Shown: positions 318 through 28,402 of the stretch, piece after piece | Numbering within the stretch: position 1 is the first letter of the stretch | Layout of the letters: every line of letters starts with the position of its first letter | Origin: a virus | Taxonomy: Duplodnaviria; Caudoviricetes | Length of the DNA: 64,000 nt | IMG/VR virus record: IMGVR_UViG_3300035180_001680 | Reading direction: 5' to 3' (one strand) | Program-made: the position numbers and the translations under genes | The notes under the pieces: model-generated | Database searches by the model: none | What the model saw: the letters and a program-made list of their open reading frames with translations, nothing else | Told to the model about the DNA's origin: nothing

Positions 318-392
318 TGCCACATCGGGGACTTGAACCCAACGTATCTCCTGATTACGAAACAGGCGCATTACCAGTTATGCTTATGTGGC
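318..392 (-). tRNA. tRNA-Thr(CGT)
   Basis: GCCACAT/ATGTGGC acceptor stem; anticodon arm CCTGT-TTCGTAA-TCAGG; T-loop TTCAAGT. Confidence 0.85.
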
Positions 393-418
393 TTTTAAGA
401 TAGAAACAGTTTTTGTAA

Positions 419-787
419 TTAATGTTTTGACTTACGTGCTAGACGTTTTTCTAAATTTTCAGTAGGAGTAAGCCACTGAAGATTTTTTGATTTGTTATTT
501 CTGGTGTTATTATCTTTATGGTCTACGTGCATATTATGATCTGGTGGTGGTCCAACAAAAGCATGTGCAACTAACCTGTTCACTCTAAAGTGTTTTTTGA
601 CTCCATTTTGTGACAAGTAAACTCTCATATACGGAGATTTTTTGTCGTTACCGTAGTGTTCTTCTTGGGCCAAAACTTTATTTGTTTTAGTCGAACGAAC
701 TTGTCCTGTGTTAGAAACTTCATAGTTTGACCAACCGTCAATTGGCTTCCAAACAACCGAACCTTCCATTAACTCTTCAAGCTTCAT
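419..787 (-). CDS. NUMOD4-HNH homing endonuclease
   Basis: WKPIDGWSNYEVSNTGQVRS (NUMOD4); VNRLVAHAF...VDHKDNNTRNNKSKNLQW (HNH). Confidence 0.85.
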   Translation of the reverse strand: MKLEELMEGSVVWKPIDGWSNYEVSNTGQVRSTKTNKVLAQEEHYGNDKKSPYMRVYLSQNGVKKHFRVNRLVAHAFVGPPPDHNMHVDHKDNNTRNNKSKNLQWLTPTENLEKRLARKSKH

Positions 788-821
788 AGTTCTTTAATCT
801 CATCATAATTAATTCAATTAA

Positions 822-1868
822 TTATACATTAGAAAATAATTTTTTCCACACGCTTAAACTATTTTCTGAATAAGAATGCAATTTCAAGAAGTTGAGATAT
901 CTATTCGTTCTTGGACAATGATATGCTCTACTTAACCCACGTTCGATGGAATCTTGGTCTACTGGACTTGCACCAAAAAATCCTACTGCCCATGGAATTT
1001 CACTTGAAGAAACAACTGGAATCCCTTGATTTATAAGGTCCGCCCCAACAATATTAAACGTTTCACTAAAAGACACCTGCATTCCAATATCCATTTGCCC
1101 ACACAATTCCAAAAATTCTTCTCTTGGTTGCCATGCGTGTTCGACTAATTTATGACCATGTTTTTTCTGACGGTCAAACATTCTTCGTAAATTGTGGAGA
1201 ATTGGTTCCCCTTTCATTTCAAGTCTGTTAGCGTTAATGTGAAAATTAAGTTTTTTGTTTTCTTTGTCAGCAAAGTGAATTGCTGCTAGTGCTTGGTGTA
1301 TATGATTTTTCAATGGTCTAACAGCCCCAAAGCATCCAATGTTGAGTTCCTCTGATTTATAATCAGGAACTTTTGTTTTTGTGTTTAAAATTGGATAATA
1401 GTTTGGCATAAACAAAAACTTATCTTCAGCCCCCTCACTATTCAAATGAAGGTTTATTAAACTTTTAACCATTCTTAGTGAATTGACACCAACGTAAACG
1501 TTTTTATATTTTAAATAGTCAGTAATCCAAGCGAATGCAATTCCTTCTTGAGCCATAAACGGAACTTCACTGTGAAGTCTTACAATCCAACGAATATTAG
1601 GATGAAGTTTTTGAAGAATTTCAAATTTTTCTGGAACAACCCACAAAGCTTCTATAATCACAACGGAAGGTTTGTGTTGTGTTACAATCCTATCAATACA
1701 ATTATTATCGACAGCAATTTCAATCTCTGATGAAATTCCAATACTGTTTAACATATCACTTACATATGACGCTGAATTTAGTAAACCCGTTGACAATCCT
1801 CTTGGTTCATGGAAATTAGCCACACCGTAATTTTCTTTTCGCTTCAATATAAATAGAACCTTTGACAT
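822..1868 (-). CDS. glycosyltransferase-like protein (GT-B/GT4-like)
   Basis: 348 aa; GCFGAVRPLKN and SFSETFNIVGAD resemble GT4 C-terminal motifs. Confidence 0.55.
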   Translation of the reverse strand: MSKVLFILKRKENYGVANFHEPRGLSTGLLNSASYVSDMLNSIGISSEIEIAVDNNCIDRIVTQHKPSVVIIEALWVVPEKFEILQKLHPNIRWIVRLHSEVPFMAQEGIAFAWITDYLKYKNVYVGVNSLRMVKSLINLHLNSEGAEDKFLFMPNYYPILNTKTKVPDYKSEELNIGCFGAVRPLKNHIHQALAAIHFADKENKKLNFHINANRLEMKGEPILHNLRRMFDRQKKHGHKLVEHAWQPREEFLELCGQMDIGMQVSFSETFNIVGADLINQGIPVVSSSEIPWAVGFFGASPVDQDSIERGLSRAYHCPRTNRYLNFLKLHSYSENSLSVWKKLFSNV

Positions 1869-1960
1869 TTGATTTCCTTTGGGTCGATATTGTAGTACTA
1901 TTTATCAAACCTGTTTATATTTATCAAACCAGTTTAGAGGAAATTTGAATTTAATGTTCC

Positions 1961-2200
1961 TTACCAATTGAAAGCGATTAGTTGTTTTAACCTTGAAATT
2001 ACTTCGTTTGCATACACCTTATCGTACACATCAACGAGAGCATATTCAATTTTTGTTATTGTTGATTTTATGTTCCACCCGTGCTCAATCGACACAGTTA
2101 AAAACTCCAACCAATTTACAACACAGTTGTTTTCTTTAATATGGTCAATTATAAGTTCGAGGGGGATACCAAGAGTTTCTGTGTGTTTGAATACATCCAA
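1961..2200 (-). CDS. small protein resembling an alanyl-tRNA synthetase segment; probably frameshifted near its true start (~2290)
   Basis: VFKHTETLGIPLELI resembles AlaRS FKLYDTYGFPLDL; the reading frame stays open upstream to a strong AAGGAGG RBS whose ATG is one base out of frame. Confidence 0.45.
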   Translation of the reverse strand: MDVFKHTETLGIPLELIIDHIKENNCVVNWLEFLTVSIEHGWNIKSTITKIEYALVDVYDKVYANEVISRLKQLIAFNW

Positions 2201-2325
2201 ACCACTGATAACTGGTTTGTTGTCGGTAGTTATTCCTACTTGTCTTAGACCGAAGTGTTTCTTCCATTTTTGTTTGCGTTTAGCATTTCCCTACCCTCCT
2301 TATTTTAGTTACTATTTTTGTGAAC

Positions 2326-2380
2326 AAGACACGTTTAGTTTCATTAGCATAGAAAGTTTTTGAGTTGCTGTTAGTGTCTT
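2326..2380 (-). ncRNA. structured RNA motif copy 1 (AAGACAC-TAACAGCAA...GTGTCTT)
   Basis: 7-bp closing stem plus conserved ACAGCAA; recurs at 16516-16577 and 17055-17206. Confidence 0.55.
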
Positions 2381-2424
2381 AAAACTAATTTTACAGATTT
2401 ATTATAAAAAGTCAACGATTGAAT

Positions 2425-2500
2425 TGGGGTGACCAGTGGGAAATTGAACCCACTCCTCCTCGTTCACAGCAAGGAATGCTACCTTTACACTATGGTCACC
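2425..2500 (-). tRNA. tRNA-His(GTG)
   Basis: G-1 present, CCTTG-CTGTGAA-CGAGG, C73, encoded CCA. Confidence 0.9.
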
Positions 2501-2594
2501 ATTGTTAATTGATTGATACGGAACCGAACCGTCTACCAGAGTCACTCCAGCTATTCCAACTCGGTTGCTTGCAAGTCAAATTTTACAATCAATT

Positions 2595-2668
2595 TGGAGC
2601 CGCCTGTCAGAATCGAACTGACGTATCAACGTTACAAAGGTTGTGTAATACCATTATACGAAGGCGGC
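2595..2668 (-). tRNA. tRNA-Thr(TGT)
   Basis: GCCGCCT acceptor; CAACC-TTTGTAA-CGTTG; CCA. Confidence 0.85.
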
Positions 2669-2673
2669 GTTTG

Positions 2674-3318
2674 TTACCAGTTGGATGTTAACATAAAATG
2701 TTTATCTGTTGTCAAACCCAGTTCTTCAGCAGTTCTTGCGATTGGTGTCCCACAAGAATCAGAACCACACAATTTTCCAAAATCATTTTTGCTAAAAATC
2801 AACAATTCGTTGTGGTCTATCATTTTATTAAAAACAAAAGAAAATAACTGCTTGTCATACTTTGAACCAAGTCTTTTTTCAACATACTTATTAAAGAGTT
2901 GACTTAGATGGGGGTTTATCTTGTTTGTGTCATATGAATATACAGAATGGAGTCCAATTATACCATAAGATATTCTATCTGTTCCGGCTAAAAACATAAT
3001 TACGCAGGAACTTTCACAAAACCCAGAAACAATATGAGCTCTCGGTCTTGCTTCAAATAATGGAAGCAACTCTAAAGTCGTTCCAGCATCTCCTCCAGTT
3101 ACACCATCAAACACAACTGTATCTATTTGATTTGTCAGATATTTTGGCATTTCGGTTAAATCTTTTTTCGTGATATCACCCGACAATATCAGTCTCTGAT
3201 TTACAATGGAATAACTAAGAGCGTAAACATGTGTTGAAACAACCAGCATCATTAAAAACATAAAATTTTTGATCATGTTAATTTTTCCAATAGGTGGTAT
3301 ATTTATTCGAAAACGCAA
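2674..3318 (-). CDS. exported hypothetical protein, possible ClpP/crotonase-like fold
   Basis: signal-peptide-like N-terminus; GGD...CESSCVIMFLAG...IGLH pattern. Confidence 0.45.
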   Translation of the reverse strand: MRFRINIPPIGKINMIKNFMFLMMLVVSTHVYALSYSIVNQRLILSGDITKKDLTEMPKYLTNQIDTVVFDGVTGGDAGTTLELLPLFEARPRAHIVSGFCESSCVIMFLAGTDRISYGIIGLHSVYSYDTNKINPHLSQLFNKYVEKRLGSKYDKQLFSFVFNKMIDHNELLIFSKNDFGKLCGSDSCGTPIARTAEELGLTTDKHFMLTSNW

Positions 3319-3403
3319 ATATAATGTTAATTATACTCTTAGTATACTAGAAAATCAAGATTTAATTCAGTGGACACTATGTCAAATGTCTAGTATCCGT
3401 TGT

Positions 3404-3479: not shown

Positions 3480-3534
3480 TTCAATCTTGTTTTTTAACGA
3501 TAGGCTTACCCACAGCACTTGTTGGAGCGTTGTT

Positions 3535-3610
3535 TGGTGCCGCCACTCCGTAACGATCGGAGATCCTCGGATTTTCAGTCCGTCGCATAGACCATCTTTG
3601 CTATAGCGGC
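3535..3610 (-). tRNA. tRNA-Phe(GAA)
   Basis: ACGGA-CTGAAAA-TCCGA; GCCGCTA acceptor; CCA. Confidence 0.9.
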
Positions 3611-3639
3611 ATTATAACGAATTTGTAAGTAAATTCGTT

Positions 3640-3717
3640 TGGTGTAACCAGCAGGATTCGTACCCGCAACACTTTGCTTTTCAGATAAATGCTCTGCACG
3701 ATTGGAGATACAGTTAC
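3640..3717 (-). tRNA. tRNA-Phe(GAA), divergent
   Basis: GTAACTG/TGGTTAC acceptor; loop CTGAAAA; imperfect anticodon stem; CCA. Confidence 0.6.
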
Positions 3718-3788
3718 GTTAATCGTTTCACTTGTCATCTTAGTTGATCAGACCATTAATGAAAGAGTAGCTTGCTCTCTAGTTGTCG

Positions 3789-3860
3789 TATTCAGGTGGG
3801 AATCGAACCACACTCTAACCCACCAACGCGGGTCGTGCTAACCATTACACTATACTGAAA
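3789..3860 (-). pseudogene. degenerate tRNA, anticodon unclear (possibly TTG)
   Basis: D-arm GTGT-AATGGTTA-GCAC and TTCGATT T-loop; atypical anticodon loop; no CCA. Confidence 0.4.
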
Positions 3861-3880
3861 GTTGTCTTACTTGTGAAATT

Positions 3881-3967
3881 TGGAGCACGGAACGGGACTC
3901 GAACCCGCAAACGGTTTTCACCTGCCACCTTGAAAGGGTGGTGTCCAATCCATCTGACTTCCCGTGC
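3881..3967 (-). tRNA. tRNA-Glu(TTC) with long variable arm
   Basis: CCACC-CTTTCAA-GGTGG; variable arm GGT-GAAA-ACC; CCA. Confidence 0.8.
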
Positions 3968-4002
3968 ATTTTTTAGTTTTAGCACACTCTAATTACAAAC
4001 TT

Positions 4003-4060
4003 TGGTGGACGATACGAGAATCGAACTCGTATTGCCCGTCAGCAGCAACCATCATGCCCC
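4003..4060 (-). ncRNA. D-armless tRNA-like RNA ending in CCA
   Basis: bulged acceptor, GTTGCT/GGCAAT arm, T-arm ACGAG-TTCGATT-CTCGT, ACCA; about 58 nt. Confidence 0.45.
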
Positions 4061-4092
4061 ATTAAAAGAACTTCAACATTTAAAAGTTCTTT

Positions 4093-4172
4093 TGGTGGAG
4101 CTACTCGGATTTGAACCGAGCTGTTTTTCCGCATTGCAAGTGCGGCGACCACGCCAAGCAGTCCCTAACCCC
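4093..4172 (-). tRNA. tRNA-Ala(TGC)
   Basis: GGGGTTA acceptor; CCGCA-CTTGCAA-TGCGG; CCA. Confidence 0.9.
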
Positions 4173-4179
4173 ATTCGTT

Positions 4180-4255
4180 TGGTCTCCATGCAAGGATTTG
4201 AACCTTGATCGCCTGGCTCCGGACCAGCTATGCTACCAGATTGCACCACACAGAG
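4180..4255 (-). tRNA. tRNA-Pro(CGG)
   Basis: CTCTGTG/CATGGAG acceptor; loop TCCGGAG; CCA. Confidence 0.75.
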
Positions 4256-4283
4256 ATAATATTTTTTGTTTAGAATTCGTTTG

Positions 4284-4357
4284 TCAGGATGACTGGATTT
4301 GAACCAGTGGTCTCGAGTTTCCAAAACTCGCGGATTACCAAACTTTCCCACACCCTG
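4284..4357 (-). tRNA. tRNA-Pro(TGG)
   Basis: CAGGGTG/CATCCTG acceptor; CGAGT-TTTGGAA-ACTCG; no encoded CCA. Confidence 0.85.
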
Positions 4358-4419
4358 ACAAACGAATCCAAATTGTTAATGAACAGTTTAAAACATTTAC
4401 TACAAAATCAACAAACAAT

Positions 4420-4451
4420 AAAAAAGGGCGCTTTTTCGGAGCGCCCTTTTT
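4420..4451 (-). terminator. intrinsic terminator of attenuator 1
   Basis: AAAAAGGGCGCT-CCGAAAA-AGCGCCCTTTTTT just upstream of the tRNA cluster. Confidence 0.85.
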
Positions 4452-4469: not shown

Positions 4470-4568
4470 TTAGTTTTTCCAACCTTCCTCAAGAGCGCAC
4501 ACAGCCATCTCTGGGGCATGCCATGCCTCAGGGGTTGTAAACGCTGTAAAGAAAGTCGTAAAAATCAT
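4470..4568 (-). CDS. putative attenuator leader peptide 1: MIFTTFFTAFTTPEAWHAPEMAVCALEEGWKN
   Basis: GGAG RBS, 32 codons; 21/32 residues are F,T,A,P,E,H, the isotypes of the downstream tRNAs; followed by a terminator. Confidence 0.75.
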   Translation of the reverse strand: MIFTTFFTAFTTPEAWHAPEMAVCALEEGWKN

Positions 4569-4622
4569 TTGTAAATCTCCATTAATTAAATTTATTGAGT
4601 ACTTTGCTCAACTGTTGATACA

Positions 4623-4652
4623 AGTATATATGACTTATTTATAAAAGTCAAC
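4623..4652 (-). promoter_or_regulatory. sigma70-like promoter of tRNA operon 1
   Basis: TTGACT-TTTATAAATAAGTCATA(17)-TATACT, identical to 28373-28402. Confidence 0.8.
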
Positions 4653-14450: not shown

Positions 14451-14538
14451 TGGCGGAAGTAGTAGGATTTGAACCCACGTGCCCTTTCGGACCATCTGCT
14501 TTCAAGGCAGCGCCAATAAACCGCTCTGGCATACTTCC
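14451..14538 (-). tRNA. tRNA-Ser(TGA)
   Basis: GCTGC-CTTGAAA-GCAGA; long variable arm; G73; CCA. Confidence 0.92.
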
Positions 14539-14626
14539 AATACTATTTACTCGAACAACTTTGTCCCCAATAACAAATTCTTTCTCCAACACACCGACCA
14601 GTTTCTTTCCAAACCAATCTCCCTCT

Positions 14627-14992
14627 TTAACTCGTTACAACATCGCTGTCTCCTGTTACAGGAATAATTTCCATTAAAGTTTTGTTCGTTGAGTTTTGTT
14701 CATTTGCTTCTCGAATCTGTTCCGCAAATGACGCATACACACTACCCATTAAACCACTCATACGTTCAGACCCCTTATAACAAACATACACGGAACCAGA
14801 AGAATTTGTAAATTCATAACGGTCATCGAATTCTTCTTGTTGTGTAATACCTGAACTTAACTTCCAACTGTCACCATTAAGGTATCCACCATACCAACCT
14901 GCAAAAATCTTTTCTATTTCTCCAAATTCATCATTTGTGAATTTGACCTTAACCCAACAATCTGGTGTATATTTACTCATATTATATTCCAA
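14627..14992 (-). CDS. hypothetical phage protein
   Basis: YTPDCW...GWYGGYLNGDSWKLSSGIT. Confidence 0.7.
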   Translation of the reverse strand: MEYNMSKYTPDCWVKVKFTNDEFGEIEKIFAGWYGGYLNGDSWKLSSGITQQEEFDDRYEFTNSSGSVYVCYKGSERMSGLMGSVYASFAEQIREANEQNSTNKTLMEIIPVTGDSDVVTS

Positions 14993-14995
14993 AAG

Positions 14996-16498
14996 TTAAA
15001 TTGTAACGAGTTGATAACGTTCACTGTTAATAACATCAAGCATCAAATCATAAGCAGACAAAAATTCTCCACCTATTGTATGCTTAAAGATAGACGGACT
15101 ACATCCACTAACCATTTGAAAACCACGCTCATCCATACTCATTGGAAACTGTTGGTTCTGAGCATCAACATTCCAAAACACCAAATTGGGCATTGTATAT
15201 CCACACTCACCAAATTCTTTAGAAATTGTTTGGAATAATTTTTCGTCAACCATACCCCGACCTTGATGCTCATAAGAATATCTAGCGTTGCTTGTAGCGG
15301 CATCAAATTCCATGTCAGAAATGATATACAACTTCTGTGGTAATTCAGATTGTGCTAACTTGTTTTGTTTGGCAACAGTAAGAATCAAACGGAACACAGC
15401 TTGAATATCTGTATTCATTTCCCATGCAGAACTATTCATATTGGCTATTTTTTCAACAAGGTCAGCTCCCTGAATTTTAAGTAGTTGAGGTGTAGAGCTA
15501 AAAGTAATGAACTTGTTATGATAAGCTTCACAAGTGTTACGTTCAGCCAAATACATTCCAACCGAAATGGCAACTTCCAATGGAAGACCAGCCATAGAAC
15601 CAGACACATCAACTACAGCAAGAGCATTTTCTTGTTTATCTCCAATATAGTTTGGAAGAGCGTCCCACAACGCATCCATGAGTTGGCGTTCGTGTTGTGG
15701 TGTGTTCCTGCCCATCGTAAATGCTTTGCGGACGATTTCATATGGAAAAAGAACACTCGCATTGATTTTCTTTTCGCCAGTCTTTAAAGAATCCAAGAAT
15801 TTCTTACGGCGTTCAGCATCGTGCGCGAAAAAAGCTTTCCCATATAACAAGTTAGCTTGAGAGGGAACGGCACTGTATTCAATACTATCCCACTGATTGG
15901 CAGACACCAACCGTTCAACAATGTTAATTTTCTTACGAAGAGTGCTCAACATCAAGCGATATGCTTTGGATCTTAATTTAAGACCCTTACGAGTTTTTGT
16001 TGCAAGTCGTTTCGTTTCTTTTGAAGAAGCGTTTTCACTTTTCAACCATTTTGCAAGCAACGAGGGATGTTCAGATGCCACGTCTTCGGTAATCTGTGTA
16101 AAGATTAGTGCAATCGCATCTGTTTCAAGTTCTGTATCAAATAACACATACAAATCATCCCAACGTCCAAAGTATGGAATAAGTTTAATGTTTTTACGGA
16201 CAGCGTCAGGGTTAACGTTAATCAACCACTTTAATTGCTTTCTAAACGTATCACGTTCACCTTGACCACCACGAGCGTCCCTGAAATAGAACATAGCACG
16301 AGTGGCTAACAATGCATTTTCTGCATAAGCTTTTGAAAACAAATGAAGAATTTCATCATCATCACGATTGCGGAGTGCACCACCCTGTGCAAACAAATCC
16401 AACATAGCTGATTTGGTTGTATCAAATGCAACAGCACCATTTTCCGTGTGTGCTACATTGGTTGTAATAGAAAGGGCATCCACAAATTCTTTGCTCAC
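14996..16498 (-). CDS. DUF2828 / TROVE-VWA (Ro60-like) protein
   Basis: TENGA, FYFRDARGGQGER, FGRWDDL, AKWL; VWA motif VVDVSGSM; ISDMEFD. Confidence 0.85.
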   Translation of the reverse strand: MSKEFVDALSITTNVAHTENGAVAFDTTKSAMLDLFAQGGALRNRDDDEILHLFSKAYAENALLATRAMFYFRDARGGQGERDTFRKQLKWLINVNPDAVRKNIKLIPYFGRWDDLYVLFDTELETDAIALIFTQITEDVASEHPSLLAKWLKSENASSKETKRLATKTRKGLKLRSKAYRLMLSTLRKKINIVERLVSANQWDSIEYSAVPSQANLLYGKAFFAHDAERRKKFLDSLKTGEKKINASVLFPYEIVRKAFTMGRNTPQHERQLMDALWDALPNYIGDKQENALAVVDVSGSMAGLPLEVAISVGMYLAERNTCEAYHNKFITFSSTPQLLKIQGADLVEKIANMNSSAWEMNTDIQAVFRLILTVAKQNKLAQSELPQKLYIISDMEFDAATSNARYSYEHQGRGMVDEKLFQTISKEFGECGYTMPNLVFWNVDAQNQQFPMSMDERGFQMVSGCSPSIFKHTIGGEFLSAYDLMLDVINSERYQLVTI

Positions 16499-16515
16499 TT
16501 GTTTCTCCTTTTATC

Positions 16516-16577
16516 AAGACACATTTTACTGGTTAGATTAAATGTCTAGTGTATTATGCGATTGCTGTTAGTGTCTT
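16516..16577 (-). ncRNA. structured RNA motif copy 2, directly upstream of the TROVE gene RBS
   Basis: AAGACAC-TAACAGCAA...GTGTCTT. Confidence 0.55.
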
Positions 16578-16584
16578 TAAACTA

Positions 16585-16809
16585 TTAAAGATTTCTTATA
16601 ACTTGAAATTCATATTGTGGTGGAACTATAACTGCTTTTACGTCTTTAGGCAACGCTTTGTCAAGTGCGTTCGAAATTTCTATTATTTTACTCTTCTTAA
16701 ATAGAGAATCGTCATGAACTTTTATGACTAAAACATCACCTGGATTAAGTTCCAGTTTTGAAATTTCCACCAATACGGTGTTAAAATTAATAACTGGTTG
16801 AGAATCCAT
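16585..16809 (-). CDS. hypothetical protein
   Basis: 74 aa; LELNPGDVLVIK. Confidence 0.6.
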   Translation of the reverse strand: MDSQPVINFNTVLVEISKLELNPGDVLVIKVHDDSLFKKSKIIEISNALDKALPKDVKAVIVPPQYEFQVIRNL

Positions 16810-17030
16810 TATTCGTCTTTACTAGTATCAGTTCGTTCAACACGCTTCTTTTTGTTTGCTTGGTATGTCAATTCAGCTGAAATCATAGCACGTTTGTATG
16901 CATCACGTGCATGCTTATCTTCAATTGAAGCCATCATACGCTTAATTGATCCCGGTAACTTAAAATGCCGGTTGGGTTTTCCAATAATCACTGCAACCGC
17001 TTGATCTTTCTTTGCTTTTTTGGTAGTCAT
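16809..17030 (-). CDS. small basic hypothetical protein
   Basis: 73 aa; RBS present. Confidence 0.6.
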   Translation of the reverse strand: MTTKKAKKDQAVAVIIGKPNRHFKLPGSIKRMMASIEDKHARDAYKRAMISAELTYQANKKKRVERTDTSKDE

Positions 17031-17054
17031 TTTGGTCCTTTTCGTTAATTTAAC

Positions 17055-17206
17055 AAGACGCCAACCGAAGCTCGGTCAACACCTACCGTATTGAAACACG
17101 GTAGCACGTTTTTGTTGTAGTCTCCATTGGGAAGCTTCACAAGAGCAATCTCCTCCACTTCCCAGATTCTCCACAACTCAAGTCAAAAGATTGCTGTGTG
17201 CGTCTT
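17055..17206 (-). ncRNA. structured RNA motif copy 3 (expanded interior)
   Basis: AAGACGC-ACACAGCAA...GCGTCTT, compensatory change in the stem. Confidence 0.55.
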
Positions 17207-17289
17207 AAACTTCAATAAAGACATTTTACGGTGATTAAAATCAAAAATCAACGATATTATTCGCAGTTATCGGAAAATTTTTCCCAATG

Positions 17290-18375
17290 GTCTGGCCCAT
17301 TGACACGATTTATCAAGAGCGTGTACTCTCTTTTTTCAAAGTGACAGTTCACAAGTATGCTTTAAACAATCTGCATTACCAACTCTCTAACCCCTTTTAC
17401 AAGGGAGGTTCTACACAGATTGTTTAAAGCAGACACCTCAATCGAGGCATTTACTTTGTATAAGGTTGAGATTAAACCTATACTATTGATACCTTCGAGA
17501 CATTATCTCATCACCTGCTACAGCTAGAGTTCTTCTCTTATCCACATAATCAGCTTTCGCACAACTATGTCTATCAACATGACTGCATTTTTTAAGTGGT
17601 TGCTTTTCCACCAACATGTAAAGCTACTCGATTATCTGTCTACCGCCAACCTTGCGAGCTGTACAAGAGCGCTAACTCTCTGCGTGCGACTTTCTTTCAA
17701 CATCCTCGACCTTGCGAGTTTTGGACGCCTTCATTACCTTGCGGCTGAAGGATTAAGCCATTTTCACTTTACACTGGAAACGTCTTTGCGTTTTATGTAA
17801 TATAATCCAAATTTATATGGGCTGTTAACCCTAACATTGTTAAACCTACCAAGAAGTGCGTTTCCAGTGGATTTCATACCTTTTGAGTATAAAAATACCA
17901 CACTCCTCATGTTTTTCATCTGCCGACTACTCAACCAGTTTTCAGGAATCGTGACACCCTATTACAGGTACCAAAACCCCCTCAACTTGCACAACAGCCC
18001 TTACTTGCGGGTTCGGACCACTGTACTACCCTTTACCTTTTGAGATGGCTAGTTTGTGTAGGCGTGAGGTCGGCACAACCCGTTACTCTCCAAATGCCCA
18101 AGTTCCCTGCAGAGCAGGCTTGTAAACATTCGTTCTTTCCACACCCCTAACTTCCCTCATATGACTACCGTTGGCGATAATCAGCTCCTTTCGGAGTAGG
18201 TCAGGCTTGCTTGTTTGTACCCCTTACAGGGCGCGGTAGTTGTAGGACCTACCGCTTTCACAACATCGCTGTTGGTTACTTTGCACAAGCGCGTAATTCT
18301 TTATCTTTTAAATTGTTTCTGATGAAACGTTCTGAATTCACAGAACTAATTAAAAGAGTGACTTTCTTAATACTA
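17290..18375 (-). ncRNA. large ornate ncRNA, GOLLD-like candidate
   Basis: ~1 kb with no credible CDS; many GCAA/GAAA-capped helices; long inverted repeats; own TTGACT-17-TAAAGT promoter; next to tRNAs. Confidence 0.55.
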
Positions 18376-18657
18376 TCTGTATACTTTATACTAACTTCTT
18401 CATTAAGTCAACAGATATTTAAATTATTTTTGTTGTATTGTTTACTCCTCATGTAACCACCTTGCCTTCTCCTGGTTGATTTCGAAGAACAATCCAAACC
18501 AACCTGGGTGAGCTCCTTGCGAGAGCACAACACAACAAAAACAACTCAAAGTCTATTTTACTACTTTTATTTCGTATCGTCAACAACTAATTTTGTACTA
18601 ACTTCAAAATCACATTCAGTACAAAACACCTTCTTTGACCGCCTAACAATATAATCT

Positions 18658-18733
18658 TGGTAGCGGGGGTCAGACTTGCACTGACCTATTTCGGCTTATG
18701 AGACCGGTGATGAACTACCTCCTCTACCCCGCA
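18658..18733 (-). tRNA. tRNA-Met(CAT), 1:72 mismatch (initiator-like)
   Basis: CCGGT-CTCATAA-GCCGA; T1:T72; CCA. Confidence 0.75.
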
Positions 18734-18907
18734 ATTAATACAAAAGTGTAGACGGTCTGTTTTTCACTAAAGAATGGCGTACCAGTCCTGATCATTGATG
18801 TTATCTCCAATTTACTACACTTTTAATCATCGTTAGAAACGCTCGGTCCTTTATAGAGCTTCGGATCCCTTCCTGTGGAATTGAACCACACCCTTTTCTA
18901 ACTTCTC

Positions 18908-18981
18908 GGTGCCCAATGTCGGAATCGAACCGACGGTCAAGTGTTTTAGAAGCACCTGCTTTACCATTAAGCCAATTGAGC
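18908..18981 (-). tRNA. amber suppressor tRNA(CTA)
   Basis: GCTCAAT-TG-GCTT..AAGC-A-GGTGC-TT-CTA-AA-ACACT-TGACC-GTCGG-TTCGATT-CCGAC-ATTGGGC-A-CC. Confidence 0.75.
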
Positions 18982-19072
18982 AATCATTTGCTAATATTAC
19001 TTGTTCTTTTAAATAATGTCAACAAATGTTTCTCATTGAATTTATTTACTATAAACAAGGAGTTCGCTGACT

Positions 19073-19327
19073 TTAAATACCAATTCCCGCATGAATAGTG
19101 GGTTCATTTTTGGAAAAATTAAACTCGTTTTTCATGTAATAGTCAGCCAATTTTTCTGTAATCATGCGGATTACATCCGAATAGGAACGTTCCAACACAA
19201 AACGAACATTTGTGTGCCGCCAGGATTTCGTTCGTAAAAATTCATAAACAATTGTCCTATGTTCACGATTAGAAGGGTCGAATATGGTATATTGAGCCGC
19301 AAATTTAAAAATTTCTGTATTCATCAT
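19073..19327 (-). CDS. hypothetical phage protein
   Basis: FDPSNREHR..VYEFLRTKSW. Confidence 0.6.
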   Translation of the reverse strand: MMNTEIFKFAAQYTIFDPSNREHRTIVYEFLRTKSWRHTNVRFVLERSYSDVIRMITEKLADYYMKNEFNFSKNEPTIHAGIGI

Positions 19328-19328
19328 A

Positions 19329-19835
19329 TTAGACCCTATTAAAAGCAATACAACTGTTAGTGTATTGGTGGTCGTTCGTAACTTCTTCACCGACCCAATC
19401 TGGTAAAATTAAACTATCAATTTCTAGCTGAGATTTGTTTTGATTAAACTCGATTTCGGCTACGATAAGCCCCTCGTGTTTTCCCCCAAACACATCAACT
19501 TCCCACAAGTGATAATTATTTTTAACAATGTAACGAACCTTCTCTATGGAATTATGTTCAAAAGCTGAAAATAACTCTTTAGCTAACGTTGGTTCGATAT
19601 CAAATTCGAATTCCTCCCGCCTCAACATATCACCAGTGTCTTTTTTAATAGTCATTCTGTACCAAGACAGGACCTGGGGAACAGATTCAGTCTTTATCCG
19701 AACTCGAGTATTCGGAGCAATGTATGCTTGTTTAATATGAAAAGTTCGAACGATATTGTTCCTCCAATTATCGTTTTTTACTAGAAACTTTCGTTCGATT
19801 TCAAGATTCATTTTTGTTTCTTTGTTTATAATCAA
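19329..19835 (-). CDS. CYTH-domain protein (triphosphate tunnel metalloenzyme)
   Basis: EIERKFLV; WEVDVF...LIVAEIE. Confidence 0.9.
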   Translation of the reverse strand: MIINKETKMNLEIERKFLVKNDNWRNNIVRTFHIKQAYIAPNTRVRIKTESVPQVLSWYRMTIKKDTGDMLRREEFEFDIEPTLAKELFSAFEHNSIEKVRYIVKNNYHLWEVDVFGGKHEGLIVAEIEFNQNKSQLEIDSLILPDWVGEEVTNDHQYTNSCIAFNRV

Positions 19836-20262
19836 TCGTTAACACTACTTCATCTTTTCCAGTCCAAACTTCACAAAGTCCGTGTTCACCCCATTCACTC
19901 AACACACTCATTTCACCATCACGCCAAAGCTCAGGACTAGCACAAACATAACCTCTTGGAGTAGTAACGCTAGTTTTGTTTGTCCAGGGGTGACCATAAT
20001 CTGTCCATCGCCAGAAACAGTTACAACAACAGCGATCGTGCCACTCTTCTTTCATACATTTGTGATTAATCATCATTAGTTCATCATTCATTAAATGAAA
20101 TTTGTCGTCAGGACAAATTGCTTCAACGGGAACAACCTCGACGTTTGTATACCACTGGGGGTGTTGTTGAATAATACCTAACTTTGTCGTTAGCGAGTTT
20201 GGAGTTTGTGTAAAGGTGAGCATCTTGGCGGTTCTCTGATGAACCCTTACCAATAGACTCAT
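19801..20262 (-). CDS. hypothetical Cys-rich protein
   Basis: 153-aa ORF; start uncertain. Confidence 0.45.
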   Translation of the reverse strand: MSLLVRVHQRTAKMLTFTQTPNSLTTKLGIIQQHPQWYTNVEVVPVEAICPDDKFHLMNDELMMINHKCMKEEWHDRCCCNCFWRWTDYGHPWTNKTSVTTPRGYVCASPELWRDGEMSVLSEWGEHGLCEVWTGKDEVVLTIDYKQRNKNES

Positions 20263-20453
20263 AACAAATCTTATTTGAGGAAGTGTGCGTATATTGAACG
20301 GCGTAACGAATCATCAGATTATCTCTGTAATTTTGAACATAACTGAATTTTACACTTAAATTACTGTGATGTCAACAGATAACAAAAAACGGACCGAAGC
20401 CCGTTTAAAGTCAACCCACCACTTAATGTTTATCTCCATTAAGAAAGAATTTT

Positions 20454-20530
20454 TGGAGCGGGAAAAGAGACTTGAACTCTCGACCTCAACTTTGGCAAAG
20501 TTGCGCTCTAACCAACTGAGCTACTCCCGC
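20454..20530 (-). tRNA. tRNA-Gly(GCC)
   Basis: GCGGGAG acceptor; CAACT-TTGCCAA-AGTTG; U73; CCA. Confidence 0.95.
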
Positions 20531-20696: not shown

Positions 20697-22033
20697 CAAT
20701 CTCTCAACTAAGAAAACCCCAGATGCTTCAACATCGGGGATGAATTAGTTGATCTCTCTTCTAACTTCCCCCATAAATACTCTTATACAAAGGGAGAACA
20801 CCACTTGCATAAAGCATACACGTTCCGATTAAATCCGACAACAGATCAGGAAACCGCGCTGAAACAGACAGGTGGATCAGTTCGTTGGTTGTGGAACCAA
20901 ATGTTAAAAGCAAATATTGACAAATATGCTGCTGAGGGGAAGTTTAATTTTCAGTTCGATATGAACCGGATGACAACGAAGTTGAGGGCCGAGATTCCGT
21001 GGCTTGAAGAGGTGAATAGCCAGGTTTTGCAGCAGAAAAACAGGGATTTAGATAAATCAATCAAAGCAAAAATCGCAAGGAAAACCAAACAGACTGGATT
21101 TCCTAAATTTAAGAAAAAGACAGAAAACAATGATTCATTTCGAGTTCCTGGTGGTTTTAAGTTATCGAATAAAGGCGTAAAATTGCCTAAAATCGGATGG
21201 ATTTCGTGGAAAATCAATAGAAAACTTCAGGGGAAAGCGAAAAATATTACATTTAAACAAGTAGGTGATAAGTGGAACGCAGTTGTTTTGTGCGAGATTG
21301 CTGATGTAGAACCAAGAACATTGTTTTCTGATGCCGAAGTTATCGGAATTGATGTTGGAATTAAAGATTTTGCTGTGTTGAGCAATGGAAAGAAGATTGC
21401 TAATCCCAAGGACCTTGAGAAGAGTTCTCGGTTGTTAAAGAGAAAACAACAATCACTCTCTAAGAAGGTTAAAGGATCTTCCAATCGAATCAAAGCAAGA
21501 AAATCTGTTGCTAAGTTGCACAGATCTGTAGCAAATAAAAGAAAAGACTTCCAGTGGAAACTAGTTGATTTGATAACCAAAAATCACTCAGTTGTTTGCA
21601 TGGAAGACCTGAATATTAGCGGAATGGTCAAGAACAGAAAGTTGGCTAAATCAATCGAATCTGCTGGATGGAGAATGTTTAAAGAAAAACTTAAACATAA
21701 ACTAGCAGAGACAGGTGGTTTGGTTGTCAATATCCCTAGATTTGCTCCATCTTCTAAAATGTGCTCATCGTGTGGAGCATTAAATCATTCTCTGACTCTA
21801 AAAGATAGAGAGTGGAAATGTGATTGCAATGCTGAACACGATAGAGACATTAACGCTGCGATTAATATTCGGAATATTGGTTTAAATACGCTGGGAACTA
21901 GCGGAATTTACGCCTGTGGAGTTGCCTCTGATGGGGATATAGCATATGATATATCTAGTTATGCAATGATGAAGCAGGAAAATCTGGGCGTTGGCCTGGA
22001 AGCCCCAAATGCTTTAGCATTGGGGTAGTTCAC
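20697..22033 (+). mobile_element. IS200/IS605-family (TnpB-only) insertion element
   Basis: preceded by TTTAT; left-end hairpin; right end ...GGGGTAGTTCAC; removing it restores the flanking gene frame; no target duplication. Confidence 0.85.
20805..22028 (+). CDS. tnpB: TnpB RNA-guided endonuclease
   Basis: HKAYTFRLNP HTH; RuvC GIDVG, MEDL, DRDINAA; Zn ribbon SKMCSSCG. Confidence 0.93.
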   Translation: MHKAYTFRLNPTTDQETALKQTGGSVRWLWNQMLKANIDKYAAEGKFNFQFDMNRMTTKLRAEIPWLEEVNSQVLQQKNRDLDKSIKAKIARKTKQTGFPKFKKKTENNDSFRVPGGFKLSNKGVKLPKIGWISWKINRKLQGKAKNITFKQVGDKWNAVVLCEIADVEPRTLFSDAEVIGIDVGIKDFAVLSNGKKIANPKDLEKSSRLLKRKQQSLSKKVKGSSNRIKARKSVAKLHRSVANKRKDFQWKLVDLITKNHSVVCMEDLNISGMVKNRKLAKSIESAGWRMFKEKLKHKLAETGGLVVNIPRFAPSSKMCSSCGALNHSLTLKDREWKCDCNAEHDRDINAAINIRNIGLNTLGTSGIYACGVASDGDIAYDISSYAMMKQENLGVGLEAPNALALG

Positions 22034-25236: not shown

Positions 25237-25240
25237 AATA

Positions 25241-25853: not shown

Positions 25854-25856
25854 ATT

Positions 25857-25905
25857 TGGTAGTCCTGGTGGGTAACGCTCCCACTACTTGCCCTCATCTA
25901 GGACC
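25857..25905 (-). ncRNA. minimal tRNA-like RNA (acceptor + T-arm + CCA only)
   Basis: GGTCCT/AGGACT stem, GTGGG-AGCGTTA-CCCAC, ACCA. Confidence 0.4.
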
Positions 25906-25957
25906 TTGGATGTTTATAAATCATCTTGTTTTCTTTAAACTACAGGACCAATTTGTT

Positions 25958-26042
25958 TGGTGTCTCGAGGGAGACTCGAACTCCCACCTTTCGGTCAATT
26001 GTTTTTGAAACAATTCAGTCTACCAATTCCCTGCACCGAGAC
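25958..26042 (-). tRNA. tRNA-Leu(CAA)
   Basis: ATTGT-TTCAAAA-ACAAT; variable arm CC-GAAA-GG; CCA. Confidence 0.85.
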
Positions 26043-26061
26043 AAATTTAAAACTTTAAAAC

Positions 26062-26152
26062 TGGCGGAAGGTACAGGAATCGAACCAGCGGCTCTACTTA
26101 GATGCCGGCGACTGCTTTCAAAACAGTTTGTCTGCCATAGACACTACCTTCC
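26062..26152 (-). tRNA. tRNA-Ser(TGA)
   Basis: ACTGT-TTTGAAA-GCAGT; long variable arm; G73; CCA. Confidence 0.88.
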
Positions 26153-26157
26153 ATATA

Positions 26158-26661
26158 TCACTTTCTGTGTTTAATACACCGAGTTGAAATCCAACCCCGG
26201 CCACCCACAGTTCCTCGTGCACCACACACTTCACAAATCATTTTACTTTGATATTCAGCAAACTGAATTGCTGAATATTGTTCTTCGGTTGCGTTAGAAA
26301 CATAAAACCGAAGAGTTCCAAATTTTTCTTTCACTTGCCGAGCAACAGGAATCGAAAGTTCTGCATCATCCATCCTTACTTTGGTTGCGGCAATCAACTC
26401 AGTTGTGATAATAGGGTTAAAATCACTTTCAGGACTACCTGGATACAAAAGTTGACCAAGGTTAGGCACCATACGATCGTATGTGTATTTCTCATAGATC
26501 CAATCGCTGCACAAAAATTCAGACAATTGATTAATAAGATTAAACCAACCATCTCCACAAGTAACCCCCCAACACATACAAGTTTCACTCATCGGAAGAG
26601 TGTGTTCTTTATATAGAGCAGGATACTTCTTAAAAAGATAATTTTGATAATGTCTGTTCAT
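26158..26661 (-). CDS. hypothetical phage protein inside tRNA cluster
   Basis: CGDGWFNLI, QVKEKFGTLRFY, CEVCG. Confidence 0.75.
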   Translation of the reverse strand: MNRHYQNYLFKKYPALYKEHTLPMSETCMCWGVTCGDGWFNLINQLSEFLCSDWIYEKYTYDRMVPNLGQLLYPGSPESDFNPIITTELIAATKVRMDDAELSIPVARQVKEKFGTLRFYVSNATEEQYSAIQFAEYQSKMICEVCGARGTVGGRGWISTRCIKHRK

Positions 26662-26718
26662 TTTTAGTCTCTCATCATATATTAAATGATATTTTAAAAT
26701 GACGAAAATGTCAACACA

Positions 26719-26805
26719 GGTCCGAGTGACCGGATTCGAACCGGTACGACCTTTCGGCCGGCAGGGTTTAAGCCTGCTGCATCTACCTAATTACACCACA
26801 CTCGT
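26719..26805 (-). tRNA. tRNA-Leu(TAA)
   Basis: GCAGG-CTTAAAC-CCTGC; long variable arm. Confidence 0.8.
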
Positions 26806-26810
26806 AATTT

Positions 26811-26894
26811 TGGTGCCCCAGACGGGAGTCAAACCCGTAAAAACCTGCGTTCTTAGCGCAGTATCTGTACCAATTTGCATTTGTCACCGGGGGC
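26811..26894 (-). tRNA. tRNA-Leu(AAG), copy 2
   Basis: CTGCG-CTAAGAA-CGCAG; near-duplicate of 27545-27627. Confidence 0.75.
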
Positions 26895-26906
26895 AATTTA
26901 ACTGTC

Positions 26907-26990
26907 TGGTCCGCAGGGAGGGATTCGAACCCACAAAAGCACTACCGTTTGAAGATAGGGGCTGTACCAATTTACCTAAGCCACCTGCGG
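26907..26990 (-). tRNA. tRNA-Leu(CAA)
   Basis: CTATC-TTCAAAC-GGTAG; CCA. Confidence 0.75.
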
Positions 26991-26995
26991 AAATA

Positions 26996-27086
26996 TGGCG
27001 GAGAGTACAGGAATCGAACCAGCGGCTCTACTTAGATGCCGGCGACTGCTTTCTAGGCAGTTTGTCCACCATGGACGCTACTCTCC
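26996..27086 (-). tRNA. tRNA-Ser(AGA)
   Basis: ACTGC-CTAGAAA-GCAGT; paralog of 26062-26152; G73; CCA. Confidence 0.85.
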
Positions 27087-27092
27087 AATATT

Positions 27093-27178
27093 TGGTCGGC
27101 AAGGGGGGATTCGAACCCAACCAAGAGCACTGGAACTTAAATCCAGGGGCTGTACCAATTTACCTAAGCCACTTGCCG
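27093..27178 (-). tRNA. tRNA-Leu(TAA)
   Basis: CTGGA-TTTAAGT-TCCAG; CCA. Confidence 0.75.
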
Positions 27179-27246
27179 AATAGTACCTAATGAGGGATTC
27201 AAACCCTCGCTCACCTTGTCATATAGATTAATGAGACAAACGTGGT

Positions 27247-27348
27247 TGGTGGCCACAGGATGGGAATTTAACCCACTTATCCAGAGGAATGGGAGCTACG
27301 CCTCGAGGAATCTCCCACAGTGCTGTTTCAACTACACCTATCTGCGCC
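27247..27348 (-). ncRNA. Tyr-like tRNA mimic with enlarged anticodon loop
   Basis: GTGGGAG/CTCCCAT arm enclosing 16 nt including CCTCGAGG; T-arm and ACCA. Confidence 0.45.
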
Positions 27349-27357
27349 ATAATATTT

Positions 27358-27430
27358 TGGAGCGGGCTATGAGATTCGAACTCACCTCTTTCGGCTTGGA
27401 AGGCCAAACGTACACCACTTGACAACCCGC
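27358..27430 (-). tRNA. tRNA-Gly(TCC)
   Basis: TTGGC-CTTCCAA-GCCGA; U73; CCA. Confidence 0.85.
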
Positions 27431-27439
27431 ATTAAATTT

Positions 27440-27535
27440 TGGAACCGTATTGCAGTCACGCTCTGCCTGTGTTGCACCTGGACTCCAAGTACAACTCTTA
27501 TTGATTCTTACCAGCACCTACTGGAATGATACGGT
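27440..27535 (-). ncRNA. tRNA mimic with CCA end and no usable anticodon loop
   Basis: ACCGTAT/ATACGGT-T-CCA; 11-bp arm with a 3-nt loop; GCAG-AGCGTGA-CTGC T-arm variant. Confidence 0.45.
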
Positions 27536-27544
27536 AATATTTTT

Positions 27545-27627
27545 TGGTGCCCCAGACGGGAGTCGAACCCGTAAAAACCTGCGTTCTTAGCGCAGTAGCT
27601 GTACCAATTTGCATTTGTCACCAGGGC
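27545..27627 (-). tRNA. tRNA-Leu(AAG), copy 1
   Basis: CTGCG-CTAAGAA-CGCAG; T-arm ACGGG-TTCGACT-CCCGT; CCA. Confidence 0.78.
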
Positions 27628-27760
27628 AATATATCATGTTTTAATCTTTATAAATGTTCACGTTCTAACTGTTTTCTTGTGTATCGAATTGTGGTTCGTT
27701 TAAATAACCAGATACCACCAACAAAGCGATTGTTCCAAATAACACACAACAGGACAAACT

Positions 27761-27837
27761 TGGTACCCAACCTCAGATTCGAACTGAGAACCACAACGTT
27801 CTAAGCGTTGCCGCGTTACCAATTAGCGTAGAAGGGT
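27761..27837 (-). tRNA. tRNA-Leu(TAG) with short variable loop
   Basis: CAACG-CTTAGAA-CGTTG; CCA. Confidence 0.75.
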
Positions 27838-27846
27838 ATTAAATTT

Positions 27847-27936
27847 TGGTGGGGAGAGGACAGAATCGAACTTCTTGCCACGAGGGACAGGGGCTACAAC
27901 CCTGCGCCAGGACCACCTAGCCTTATTTCACTCCCC
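27847..27936 (-). tRNA. tRNA-Tyr(GTA), divergent D-arm
   Basis: CAGGG-TTGTAGC-CCCTG; Tyr-type variable arm; CCA. Confidence 0.65.
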
Positions 27937-27943
27937 TTTATTT

Positions 27944-28029
27944 TGGAACGCTAGGTAGGATTTGCACCCACGTGGGCTTTCACCATCTGCTTTGCAGGCA
28001 GTTCCGTTCGTCTACTCCGGCACTAGCGC
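27944..28029 (-). tRNA. tRNA-Cys(GCA) with long variable arm
   Basis: ACTGC-CTGCAAA-GCAGA; U73; CCA. Confidence 0.8.
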
Positions 28030-28035
28030 ATAAAT

Positions 28036-28154
28036 TGGTGGGCATGGTAGGAATCGAACCTACTCACCACGAGGGAACGGATTTAGTCGAGAACACTGGA
28101 AAACCAATGCTCTCTAGTCAGTCCGCCGCGACTCTCCAACTTCGCCGCATGCCC
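28036..28154 (-). tRNA. tRNA-Tyr body with 33-nt hairpin insertion in the anticodon loop
   Basis: GCGGA/TCCGT stem encloses 40 nt; GAGAGCATTGG-TTTT-CCAGTGTTCTC hairpin; removing 28086-28118 gives CT-GTA-AA. Confidence 0.7.
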
Positions 28155-28190
28155 CAAAATATTTCAAATTTTTAAATAACAGTTTACAAC

Positions 28191-28222
28191 AAAAAAGCCT
28201 GGGTCTTTCGAGCCAGGCTTTC
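28191..28222 (-). terminator. intrinsic terminator of attenuator 2
   Basis: AAAGCCTGG-CTCGAAAGAC-CCAGGCTTTTTT. Confidence 0.85.
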
Positions 28223-28240
28223 TTTTGGGATTTTTTCTCT

Positions 28241-28336
28241 TTACATCTTGGTAATTCCCCAAACGGCGACCTGGCTCTTATCCAATATGGATAAAGACCC
28301 GAGTGATAGACAATAACCTAATCCGTTTGTGTTCAT
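28241..28336 (-). CDS. putative attenuator leader peptide 2: MNTNGLGYCLSLGSLSILDKSQVAVWGITKM
   Basis: AAAGGA RBS; residues 5-18 are 13/14 G,L,Y,C,S, the isotypes of the downstream tRNAs. Confidence 0.78.
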   Translation of the reverse strand: MNTNGLGYCLSLGSLSILDKSQVAVWGITKM

Positions 28337-28372
28337 TTTGTAAATCCTTTAAGTAATTAATTCAGTGTTATA

Positions 28373-28402
28373 AGTATATATGACTTATTTATAAAAGTCA
28401 AC
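28373..28402 (-). promoter_or_regulatory. sigma70-like promoter of tRNA operon 2
   Basis: TTGACT-TTTATAAATAAGTCATA-TATACT, identical to 4623-4652. Confidence 0.8.

Follow-up and report, generated by a model that had tools for sequence, protein, structure and literature searches.

The stretch of DNA analysed here (the window) comprises 64,000 nucleotides (nt) of an IMG/VR virus record of 178,796 bp (IMGVR_UViG_3300035180_001680; bases 1549-65548, reversed) and carries two clusters of transfer RNA (tRNA) genes, each preceded by a promoter, a short open reading frame (ORF) and an intrinsic terminator; two more such units lie elsewhere on the same contig. From the order of these elements, from modelled RNA folds and from the match of codons to tRNAs we consider it likely that the units are transcription attenuators of the ribosome-mediated (leader-peptide) kind, each with a strong sigma-70-type promoter on one side and a cluster of tRNA genes on the other, and the phage probably makes these tRNAs only when ribosomes are slow to decode the matching codons. 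A preliminary description of the window, made from the letters alone, had read the two units within it as stalling attenuators that survey several amino acids at once, a reading which the in silico results support and which the two units outside the window also fit. The parts and their order, the alternative pairings, the match between codons and anticodons, the conservation and the co-variation in relatives were all computed here, and it is from these that we infer translation of the leader, the sign and magnitude of the response and its natural trigger; early in infection the promoter would be served by the host polymerase. As the source record has a CheckV completeness of only about 52%, the contig appears to be a fragment of a very large phage. 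Four studies of sediment or microbial mats have DNA contigs that include the locus.

Both units of the window begin with the same 31-bp promoter block, exact at the two sites as the preliminary description had it; these are the only copies in the window (matches were found in 0 of 100 shuffles), and the whole contig holds four, those outside the window being at contig positions 74194 and 80154. Each promoter is followed by a Shine–Dalgarno sequence (GGAG, AGGA or AAGA, 8–10 nt 5' of the ATG and in the conserved context TTTACAAATG), a short ORF, a hairpin with a U-run and, 25–65 nt later, the first tRNA gene. The ribosome-binding site, the ORF of 31–32 codons and the intrinsic terminator described earlier are thus present in both window units, on the minus strand, and the remark that the leaders share no sequence extends to the four paralogous units together, which have the promoter and the context of the ribosome-binding site in common and ORF bodies (31–33 codons) that are unrelated. 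Leader 3 (MFVTRQQQSISIIRRRQVRRDSDIIMSGGWV, ending in TAG) precedes cluster 3 and leader 4 (MFDSTKPIFINNVNVNNKRSHAEALTVEIKLII) precedes cluster 4, both outside the window.

ARAGORN found 23 tRNA genes in the window, every one on the minus strand. The tRNAs listed in the preliminary description were recovered with two qualifications, in that the ‘second Phe’ (3643-3717) is weak (Rfam 32.6 bits, absent from the ARAGORN calls) and tRNA-Tyr (28036-28154) is recognised only when the search tolerates a 33-nt insert in its anticodon loop. Past the start of the window cluster 1 goes on with tRNAs for Trp, Met, Thr(GGU) and Ala, which accounts for the W and M codons in leader 1. Cluster 3 holds Gln, Gln, Asp, Gln, Arg, Val, Ile, Asp, Arg, Ser(GCU), Arg and Arg tRNAs and cluster 4 Val, Asn, Lys, Lys and Lys. 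Between them clusters 1–4 serve all 20 amino acids and hardly overlap. A fifth cluster (54786-56351) stands directly behind protein genes and has no leader, and so serves as a negative control.

The codons of each leader were compared with the tRNAs of each cluster, readability being scored with standard wobble rules against the codon usage of the phage itself as background. In the leader by cluster matrix of amino acids the diagonal values were 0.57, 0.77, 0.67 and 0.34, and the true assignment ranked first of the 24 permutations. At the codon level the true pairing scored 3.07, compared with 1.97 for the best of the remaining 23 pairings. Among the stall-sensitive codons, 13/15, 13/16, 22/24 and 8/17 (units 1–4) were readable by the unit's own cluster (binomial p 6e-6, 3e-5, 2e-12 and 4e-3, respectively) as opposed to 0–4 by any other cluster (0–1/15 for unit 1), bearing out the claim that leaders 1 and 2 each match their own cluster. 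The match was confined to the stretch upstream of the segment termed region 2 (see below), the remaining ORF being near background. Each leader surveys 3–9 amino acids and up to 11 anticodons; leader 2 samples 11/11 distinct anticodons of cluster 2 and its control codons 5–18 are all readable there, and it should be noted that this full readability leans partly on two tRNAs re-read by hand and on a weak Ile(UAU) candidate. The choice of synonymous codons adds a modest signal at the level of isoacceptors: on resampling of synonymous codons, 33 anticodons were covered compared with 29.1 expected (P=0.026) and 61 codons were decodable compared with 55.6 expected (P=0.011). As a negative control we used an unrelated phage group (IMG/VR contigs L005, L007-L012) in which a 67-amino-acid ORF and a terminator precede tRNAs behind a promoter of near-identical layout (TTGACTTTCCTTAGAAAGTCATATATACT); here there was no composition match, the ORF matching only 30–39% for 6–8 amino acids.

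The second line of evidence concerns alternative RNA pairings. In every unit region 2, a segment of 7–9 nt, and of 8 nt in all four units of this contig, that lies within the ORF or at its end, is complementary to the GC-rich core of region 3, the 5' arm of the terminator hairpin (regions 3 and 4), which for the two window units had been noticed earlier. Complementarity was scored by RNAduplex energies against nucleotide shuffles; a test restricted to Watson–Crick pairs under-scores unit 1, where there is a G.U pair. The region 2/region 3 duplexes beat the shuffles in the first seven units (p 0.0003–0.037, Fisher 6e-11) and in the four units found later (p 0.002–0.013). Region 2 of unit 1 has two partners, either control codons 8–10 (1:2) or the terminator 5' arm (2:3). 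Folding was simulated with the transcript truncated before region 4 and with a ribosome placed at successive codons, and in this simulation the 2:3 helix had a probability of about 1 when the ribosomal A site lay in codons 2–16, 2–17, 2–25 and 2–18 (units 1–4) and of about 0 once the footprint covered region 2. Before the synthesis of region 3, region 2 was predicted to pair with the control codons (region 1) in units 1–3. The 1:2 pairing was clear in units 1–3 of this phage and in rel_L2 and weak in unit 4, rel_L1 and rel_L3; at equilibrium 2:3 outcompeted 1:2 in 6/7 units. The ribosome-free transcript of unit 1 folds as 1:2 plus terminator, like that of trp.

Three viral contigs related to this phage (G000), with 55–76% protein identity, were recovered by scanning for sequence patterns and by searching with a conserved QueE-like protein. 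Three homologous units were seen in G001 (56 kb, 45–78% protein identity), a single one in G002 (122 kb, 63% identity) and three again in G003 (257 kb, 55% identity), which lacks the fourth. In all seven of these units the promoter is nearly unchanged, the ORF is open and the terminator with its region-2/region-3 complement is present. The paired segments themselves have changed: across the genomes the pair in unit 2 is GAGCCAGG/CCUGGCUC, AACCAGGC/GCCUGGUU or of GAGGCGA type and that in unit 3 is CUGGGU/ACCCAG, AACCGGG/CCCGGUU or GGGUUU/AAACCC, and alteration on both sides in this manner amounts to compensatory change. The leaders of G001 matched their own clusters at 14/20 codons (0/20 for the other cluster) and 20/24 (2/24 for the other), and the leader by cluster matrix of G003 was best on the diagonal. 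Leader composition follows tRNA content from one relative to another, which we regard as the most telling observation. In G003 the string ...AAG TCA AAA AGT...AAA... stands in leader 2, whose cluster holds the Lys(CUU), Lys(UUU) and Ser(GCU) tRNAs; cluster 3 there holds Asn and Met tRNAs and leader 3 has AAT, ATG and AAT. Ser(GCU) belongs to cluster 3 in G000 and G001, where leader 3 has AGT three times and twice, respectively, and in G000 the Lys and Asn tRNAs form a unit of their own (unit 4) with a leader rich in N, K and V. Taking ten units of the four genomes together, 176/216 codons upstream of region 2 have a tRNA of the cognate class in their own cluster and 65/69 of the tRNA classes present are sampled by their own leader (odds ratio 55, for cells that are not independent). 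The co-variation of leader composition with tRNA isotypes that the preliminary description had suggested looking for is therefore found in G001–G003, and homologous loci that lack the ORF, which it had named as telling against it, were not what we saw, the ORF being open in 11 units of the four genomes. One variant of the locus in a metagenome differs by three changes, each of them in the C-terminal portion of leader 2 outside the sensor, too few to weigh. Other searches were less productive. A metagenome scan with the pattern TTGACTT-N11-TCATATATACTT gave no relatives among the matches listed, most of which were an unrelated gut promoter; blastn of leader 1 against a phage collection gave matches to tRNA-Pro only; scans of viral contigs with promoter or leader fragments found G001 as the single relative; and tblastn with the DUF2828 and QueE-like proteins gave no close cultured relative (identity <48%).

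These results are consistent with the following sequence of events. RNA polymerase would transcribe the leader and a ribosome would begin to translate the leader ORF. Quick decoding of the first two thirds of the ORF, which consists of codons of the downstream tRNAs, would bring the ribosome onto or past region 2, which would then be covered, re-paired with region 1 or kept from region 3 by the ribosome in the enclosed loop, so that the terminator (3:4) could form and the tRNA genes would stay untranscribed. If any control codon were slow, charged tRNA being scarce, the ribosome would stall upstream, region 2 would be free to pair with region 3 and the polymerase would read through into the tRNA genes. 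As the products are the same tRNAs whose shortage would be sensed, the loop would be one of negative feedback in which the tRNA pool is replenished on demand. The inverse polarity, with translation promoting read-through, is unlikely as the terminator is out of reach for a ribosome at the stop codon. More tentatively, and at somewhat less than even probability in our estimate, the four units may together form a self-correcting tRNA homeostat of four channels, in which each leader acts as a codon checklist for nearly every anticodon of its cluster and the loss of a host tRNA opens the operon that holds its replacement, to be closed once decoding recovers. Triggers could be anticodon-nuclease or PARIS-type defences, phage-induced decay of host RNA or a mismatch in codon usage. 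The PARIS nuclease is neutralised by the tRNA-Lys of T5, which rescues infection (PMC11464382), and uncharged or cleaved host tRNAs are accordingly plausible as a trigger. Defences that cleave tRNA are plausibly one of several triggers, sequence being unable to separate them from plain feedback of supply and demand.

Several observations weigh against attenuation by the translating ribosome or limit its reach. The codon match of unit 4 is weak (8/17), orthologous units are not independent samples, and two tRNAs of cluster 2 had to be re-read by hand from a clean 5-bp anticodon stem, namely Leu-AAG (27545-27627) and Leu-CAA (26907-26990, labelled ‘Lys’ by ARAGORN), the Ile(UAU) of that cluster being a low-scoring candidate. 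In units 2–4 the ribosome-free equilibrium fold is the antiterminator, so that termination there must come from timing, from kinetic trapping in 1:2 or from a ribosome that sits at the stop codon and sterically blocks the pairing; it also follows that units 2–4 are predicted to read through in the absence of a ribosome, and their tRNAs would then be made as well when translation is globally impaired. The stop codons of units 2 and 4 sit 27–29 nt past region 2. The 2:3 helix closes around a small hairpin in which the stop codon lies, and hence a ribosome at the stop would occupy the loop that 2:3 must close, an effect outside the simulation. ORFs and promoter-like sites lie between the leaders and the distal tRNAs, so the attenuator need not govern all of them. 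Finally, the public runs that hold the locus are all DNA, with no RNA run among them.

Three other explanations were weighed. The same device might report a shortage of amino acids, through uncharged tRNA, or an overall slowdown of translation instead of the size of the tRNA pool, the tRNA genes being simply stress-induced. Classical attenuators do react to the level of charged tRNA whatever its cause, charging and abundance are inseparable by sequence, and the default read-through of units 2–4 would switch them on under global arrest of translation; we nevertheless regard this as unlikely, since extra tRNA gives no relief from starvation and there would be no benefit to select a codon-for-anticodon match, and since the match reaches down to isoacceptors (AGT with Ser(GCU), ATA with Ile(UAU), CTC with Leu(AAG)), which a loop that senses its own product fits better. 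A conserved element acted on in trans offers a different account, in which a phage or host RNA-binding protein or a small RNA sets termination through the 5' hairpin of the leader transcript or the motif behind the terminator and the ORF has a minor part. The 31-bp promoter block, the hairpin UUGAGCAAAGUACUCAA and the motif TGTTCWTTAAAAATTTGA are indeed conserved and are not explained by the ribosome model. Being identical in all units, they cannot however account for a match specific to each leader and its cluster, and we think such a factor very unlikely as the main determinant, though the shared elements may add a common layer (timing, stability or processing) beside the codon-specific one.

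Least probable of all, and hardly to be credited in our view, is that the leaders are ordinary or non-functional short ORFs with terminators of their own, that the tRNAs come from other promoters and that the match reflects coincidence or local bias. Promoter-like hexamers do occur within the clusters (for example 3877-3849 and 3358-3330). Such sites are however not above shuffle expectation, and none fits between terminator and first tRNA, where the gap of 25–65 nt is too small for a promoter. The match moreover recurs in the 11 units of four genomes and tracks the relocation of tRNAs, the antiterminator complement is significant in every unit, and the control ORF that stands before tRNAs in another phage group lacks the match.

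The units proposed here to be leader-peptide attenuators resemble the enterobacterial leaders thrL (Thr and Ile), ilvL/ivbL (Ile, Leu and Val), hisL, trpL, pheL and leuL in having a promoter-proximal short ORF with a ribosome-binding site and control codons, for several amino acids in some, together with mutually exclusive 2:3 and 3:4 pairings and an intrinsic terminator, and also, clearly so in units 1–3, a predicted 1:2 pairing; as in those leaders, the fold would be chosen by the position of the ribosome. The enterobacterial leaders regulate biosynthetic enzymes in response to 1–3 amino acids, whereas the phage units would regulate tRNAs in response to 3–9, and unlike them the phage units are viral, occur in four parallel copies, show no sequence homology to them and make a product that would feed straight back on the sensor. 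Three of the four units of this phage gave sub-threshold matches to the Rfam families His_leader (RF00514, 29.8 bits against a gathering threshold of 49) and Thr_leader (RF00506, 27.1 and 25.6 bits against 55), with E-values of 0.2–0.7; these scores are a matter of architectural resemblance and not of family membership. The leader pheM of pheST in Escherichia coli is a further parallel, being a leader-peptide attenuator of a translation-apparatus gene that responds to charged cognate tRNA, as proposed here, but it differs from the phage units in that it controls a synthetase, surveys a single amino acid and is cellular. T-box riboswitches are likewise leader RNAs that sense tRNA status through a terminator/antiterminator switch, but they bind uncharged tRNA directly (by a specifier codon and the T-box sequence) and without translation, whereas the phage units would act via a translating ribosome; the T-box covariance model (RF00230) had no match at E<=1. 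Full-text literature searches, which did not cover the older subscription literature, found no description of leader-peptide attenuation of tRNA genes. The T5 tRNA-region sequencing papers of the 1980s are said to mention short ORFs among the tRNA genes. What would be new is the choice of tRNA genes as the target, the breadth (up to 9 amino acids and 11 anticodons per leader), the direct feedback by the product and the viral multi-copy setting. The T5 tRNA set substitutes for host tRNAs as these clusters would (PMC11464382), but no leader-peptide gating has been described for it.

Why phages carry tRNA genes and how these are expressed is an old question, to which the current answers are compensation for codon usage, the supply of substitutes for degraded host tRNAs and evasion of defences that cleave tRNA. 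If attenuation of the kind proposed operates here, phage tRNAs would be under demand-driven control and these competing answers could be tested by asking which depletion opens which channel. Leader-peptide attenuation would then extend from metabolism to the decoding machinery, with the tRNA product acting on its own sensor, and the units could provide synthetic biology with compact, orthogonal and codon-specific sensors of tRNA availability. Were the homeostat also true, it would be an evolvable and modular circuit for counter-defence and autonomy in translation.

Table. Features of the two tRNA units of the window, with the corresponding post-terminator motifs from outside it.
Feature	Position	Strand	Details
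Unit 1 promoter	4622..4652	-	GTTGACTTTTATAAATAAGTCATATATACTT, 31 bp, TTGACT-17-TATACT
Unit 2 promoter	28372..28402	-	identical block GTTGACTTTTATAAATAAGTCATATATACTT
Unit 1 Shine–Dalgarno sequence	4577..4580	-	GGAG, 9 nt before ORF, context GGAGATTTACAAATG
Unit 2 Shine–Dalgarno sequence	28345..28348	-	AGGA, context AGGATTTACAAAATG
Leader ORF 1	4470..4568	-	MIFTTFFTAFTTPEAWHAPEMAVCALEEGWKN, 32 codons + TAA; homologous ORFs in G001, G002, G003
Leader ORF 2	28241..28336	-	MNTNGLGYCLSLGSLSILDKSQVAVWGITKM, 31 codons + TAA; homologues in G001, G003
Leader 1 control codons 3-22	4503..4562	-	F, T, A, P, E, W, H, M
Leader 2 control codons 5-18	28283..28324	-	GGA TTA GGT TAT TGT CTA TCA CTC GGG TCT TTA TCC ATA TTG
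Unit 1 region 2	4491..4498	-	GCGCUCUU, codons 24-26; pairs with region 3 core AAGGGCGC, 4441-4448
Unit 2 region 2	28270..28277	-	GAGCCAGG, codons 20-23; pairs with region 3 core CCUGGCUC, 28210-28217
Unit 1 intrinsic terminator	4415..4451	-	regions 3 + 4, U-run; -17.8 kcal/mol, z -4.7
Unit 2 intrinsic terminator	28188..28224	-	with U-run; -19.4 kcal/mol, z -4.7
Unit 1 post-terminator motif	4368..4383	-	TTCATTAACAATTTGG, conserved, just 5' of first tRNA
Unit 2 post-terminator motif	28164..28179	-	TTATTTAAAAATTTGA, conserved
Post-terminator motif, units outside the window	L153 8999-9014 and 14830-14845		
Cluster 1 proximal tRNAs	3535..4357	-	Pro(UGG), Pro(CGG), Ala(UGC), Glu(UUC), weak Phe-like, Phe(GAA)
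Cluster 1 distal tRNAs	316..2668	-	Thr(UGU), His(GUG), Thr(CGU), ORFs in between
Cluster 2 proximal tRNAs, first part	25857..28154	-	Tyr(GUA, 33-nt insertion), Cys, Leu(UAG), Leu(AAG), Gly(UCC), Ser(AGA)
Cluster 2 proximal tRNAs, rest	25857..28154	-	Leu(CAA), Leu(UAA), Ser(UGA), Leu(CAA), weak candidate Ile(UAU)
Distal tRNA Gly(GCC)	20454-20530	-	same strand as cluster 2
Distal tRNA(CUA)	18908-18981	-	same strand as cluster 2
Distal tRNA Ser(UGA)	14451-14538	-	same strand as cluster 2

The conserved motif behind the terminator, (C)TGTTCWTTAAAAATTTGA, was found in all four units and in most of those of the relatives and nowhere else in the contig, and ends 0–15 nt before the 5' end of the tRNA; it may be a processing or pause signal. 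That it might be a second or late promoter was considered and rejected, since within the contig it is confined to the four units and leaves too little distance to the tRNA 5' ends. The conserved 5'-terminal hairpin opens the leader transcript at 4592-4612 (minus strand) and has a matching site in unit 3 and in all units of G002 and G003. Unit 3 of this phage has about 150 nt of additional structured 5' untranslated region, and in unit 1 of G003 (L165 313-423) the promoter block is present in two tandem copies 80 nt apart. A reading of the palindrome in the promoter (TGACTT-N8-AAGTCA) as an operator was dropped because it is lost in G001 (AACTCA).

Insertions of 27–33 nt that form a hairpin in the anticodon loop were seen in tRNA-Tyr (28036-28154, minus strand), at contig 66175-66290 and in L164/L165 of G003, with Ser, Leu and Trp tRNAs as further candidates beyond Tyr; they are far shorter than group I introns. 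A group I intron (RF00028, 61.5 bits; 55902-56183, minus strand) splits the tRNA-Leu(UAA) of the leaderless cluster. The tRNA at 18908-18981 (minus strand; Rfam tRNA 63.9 bits) has the anticodon CUA, of amber-suppressor type, and is labelled ‘Pyl’ by ARAGORN; as leader 3 ends in TAG, this codon apparently still serves as a stop, at least there. The distal tRNAs at 14451..20530 are on the strand of cluster 2 and possibly part of its read-through transcript; between them and leader 2 stand ORFs and a GOLLD RNA.

The GOLLD RNA (Rfam RF02032, 198.8 bits) is full-length, lies at 17463-17908 (minus strand) within the tRNA region and is flanked by the tRNA(CUA) gene and by an ORF for a DUF2828/DUF7788 (TROVE/Ro-like) protein (14996-16498, minus strand). 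A transposase-like ORF (20805-22028, plus strand; phrog_506, E 1.5e-112) is found on the opposite strand among the distal tRNAs of cluster 2, and a gene for an R2K-clade ATP-grasp protein (PF14243/PF18299; 13456-14244, minus strand) adjoins tRNA-Ser(UGA). Between clusters 1 and 3 lies a QueE-like radical-SAM gene (contig 67125-67997, L153 1577-2449), whose product is 47% identical to Stenotrophomonas phage proteins and suggests a 7-deazaguanine pathway.

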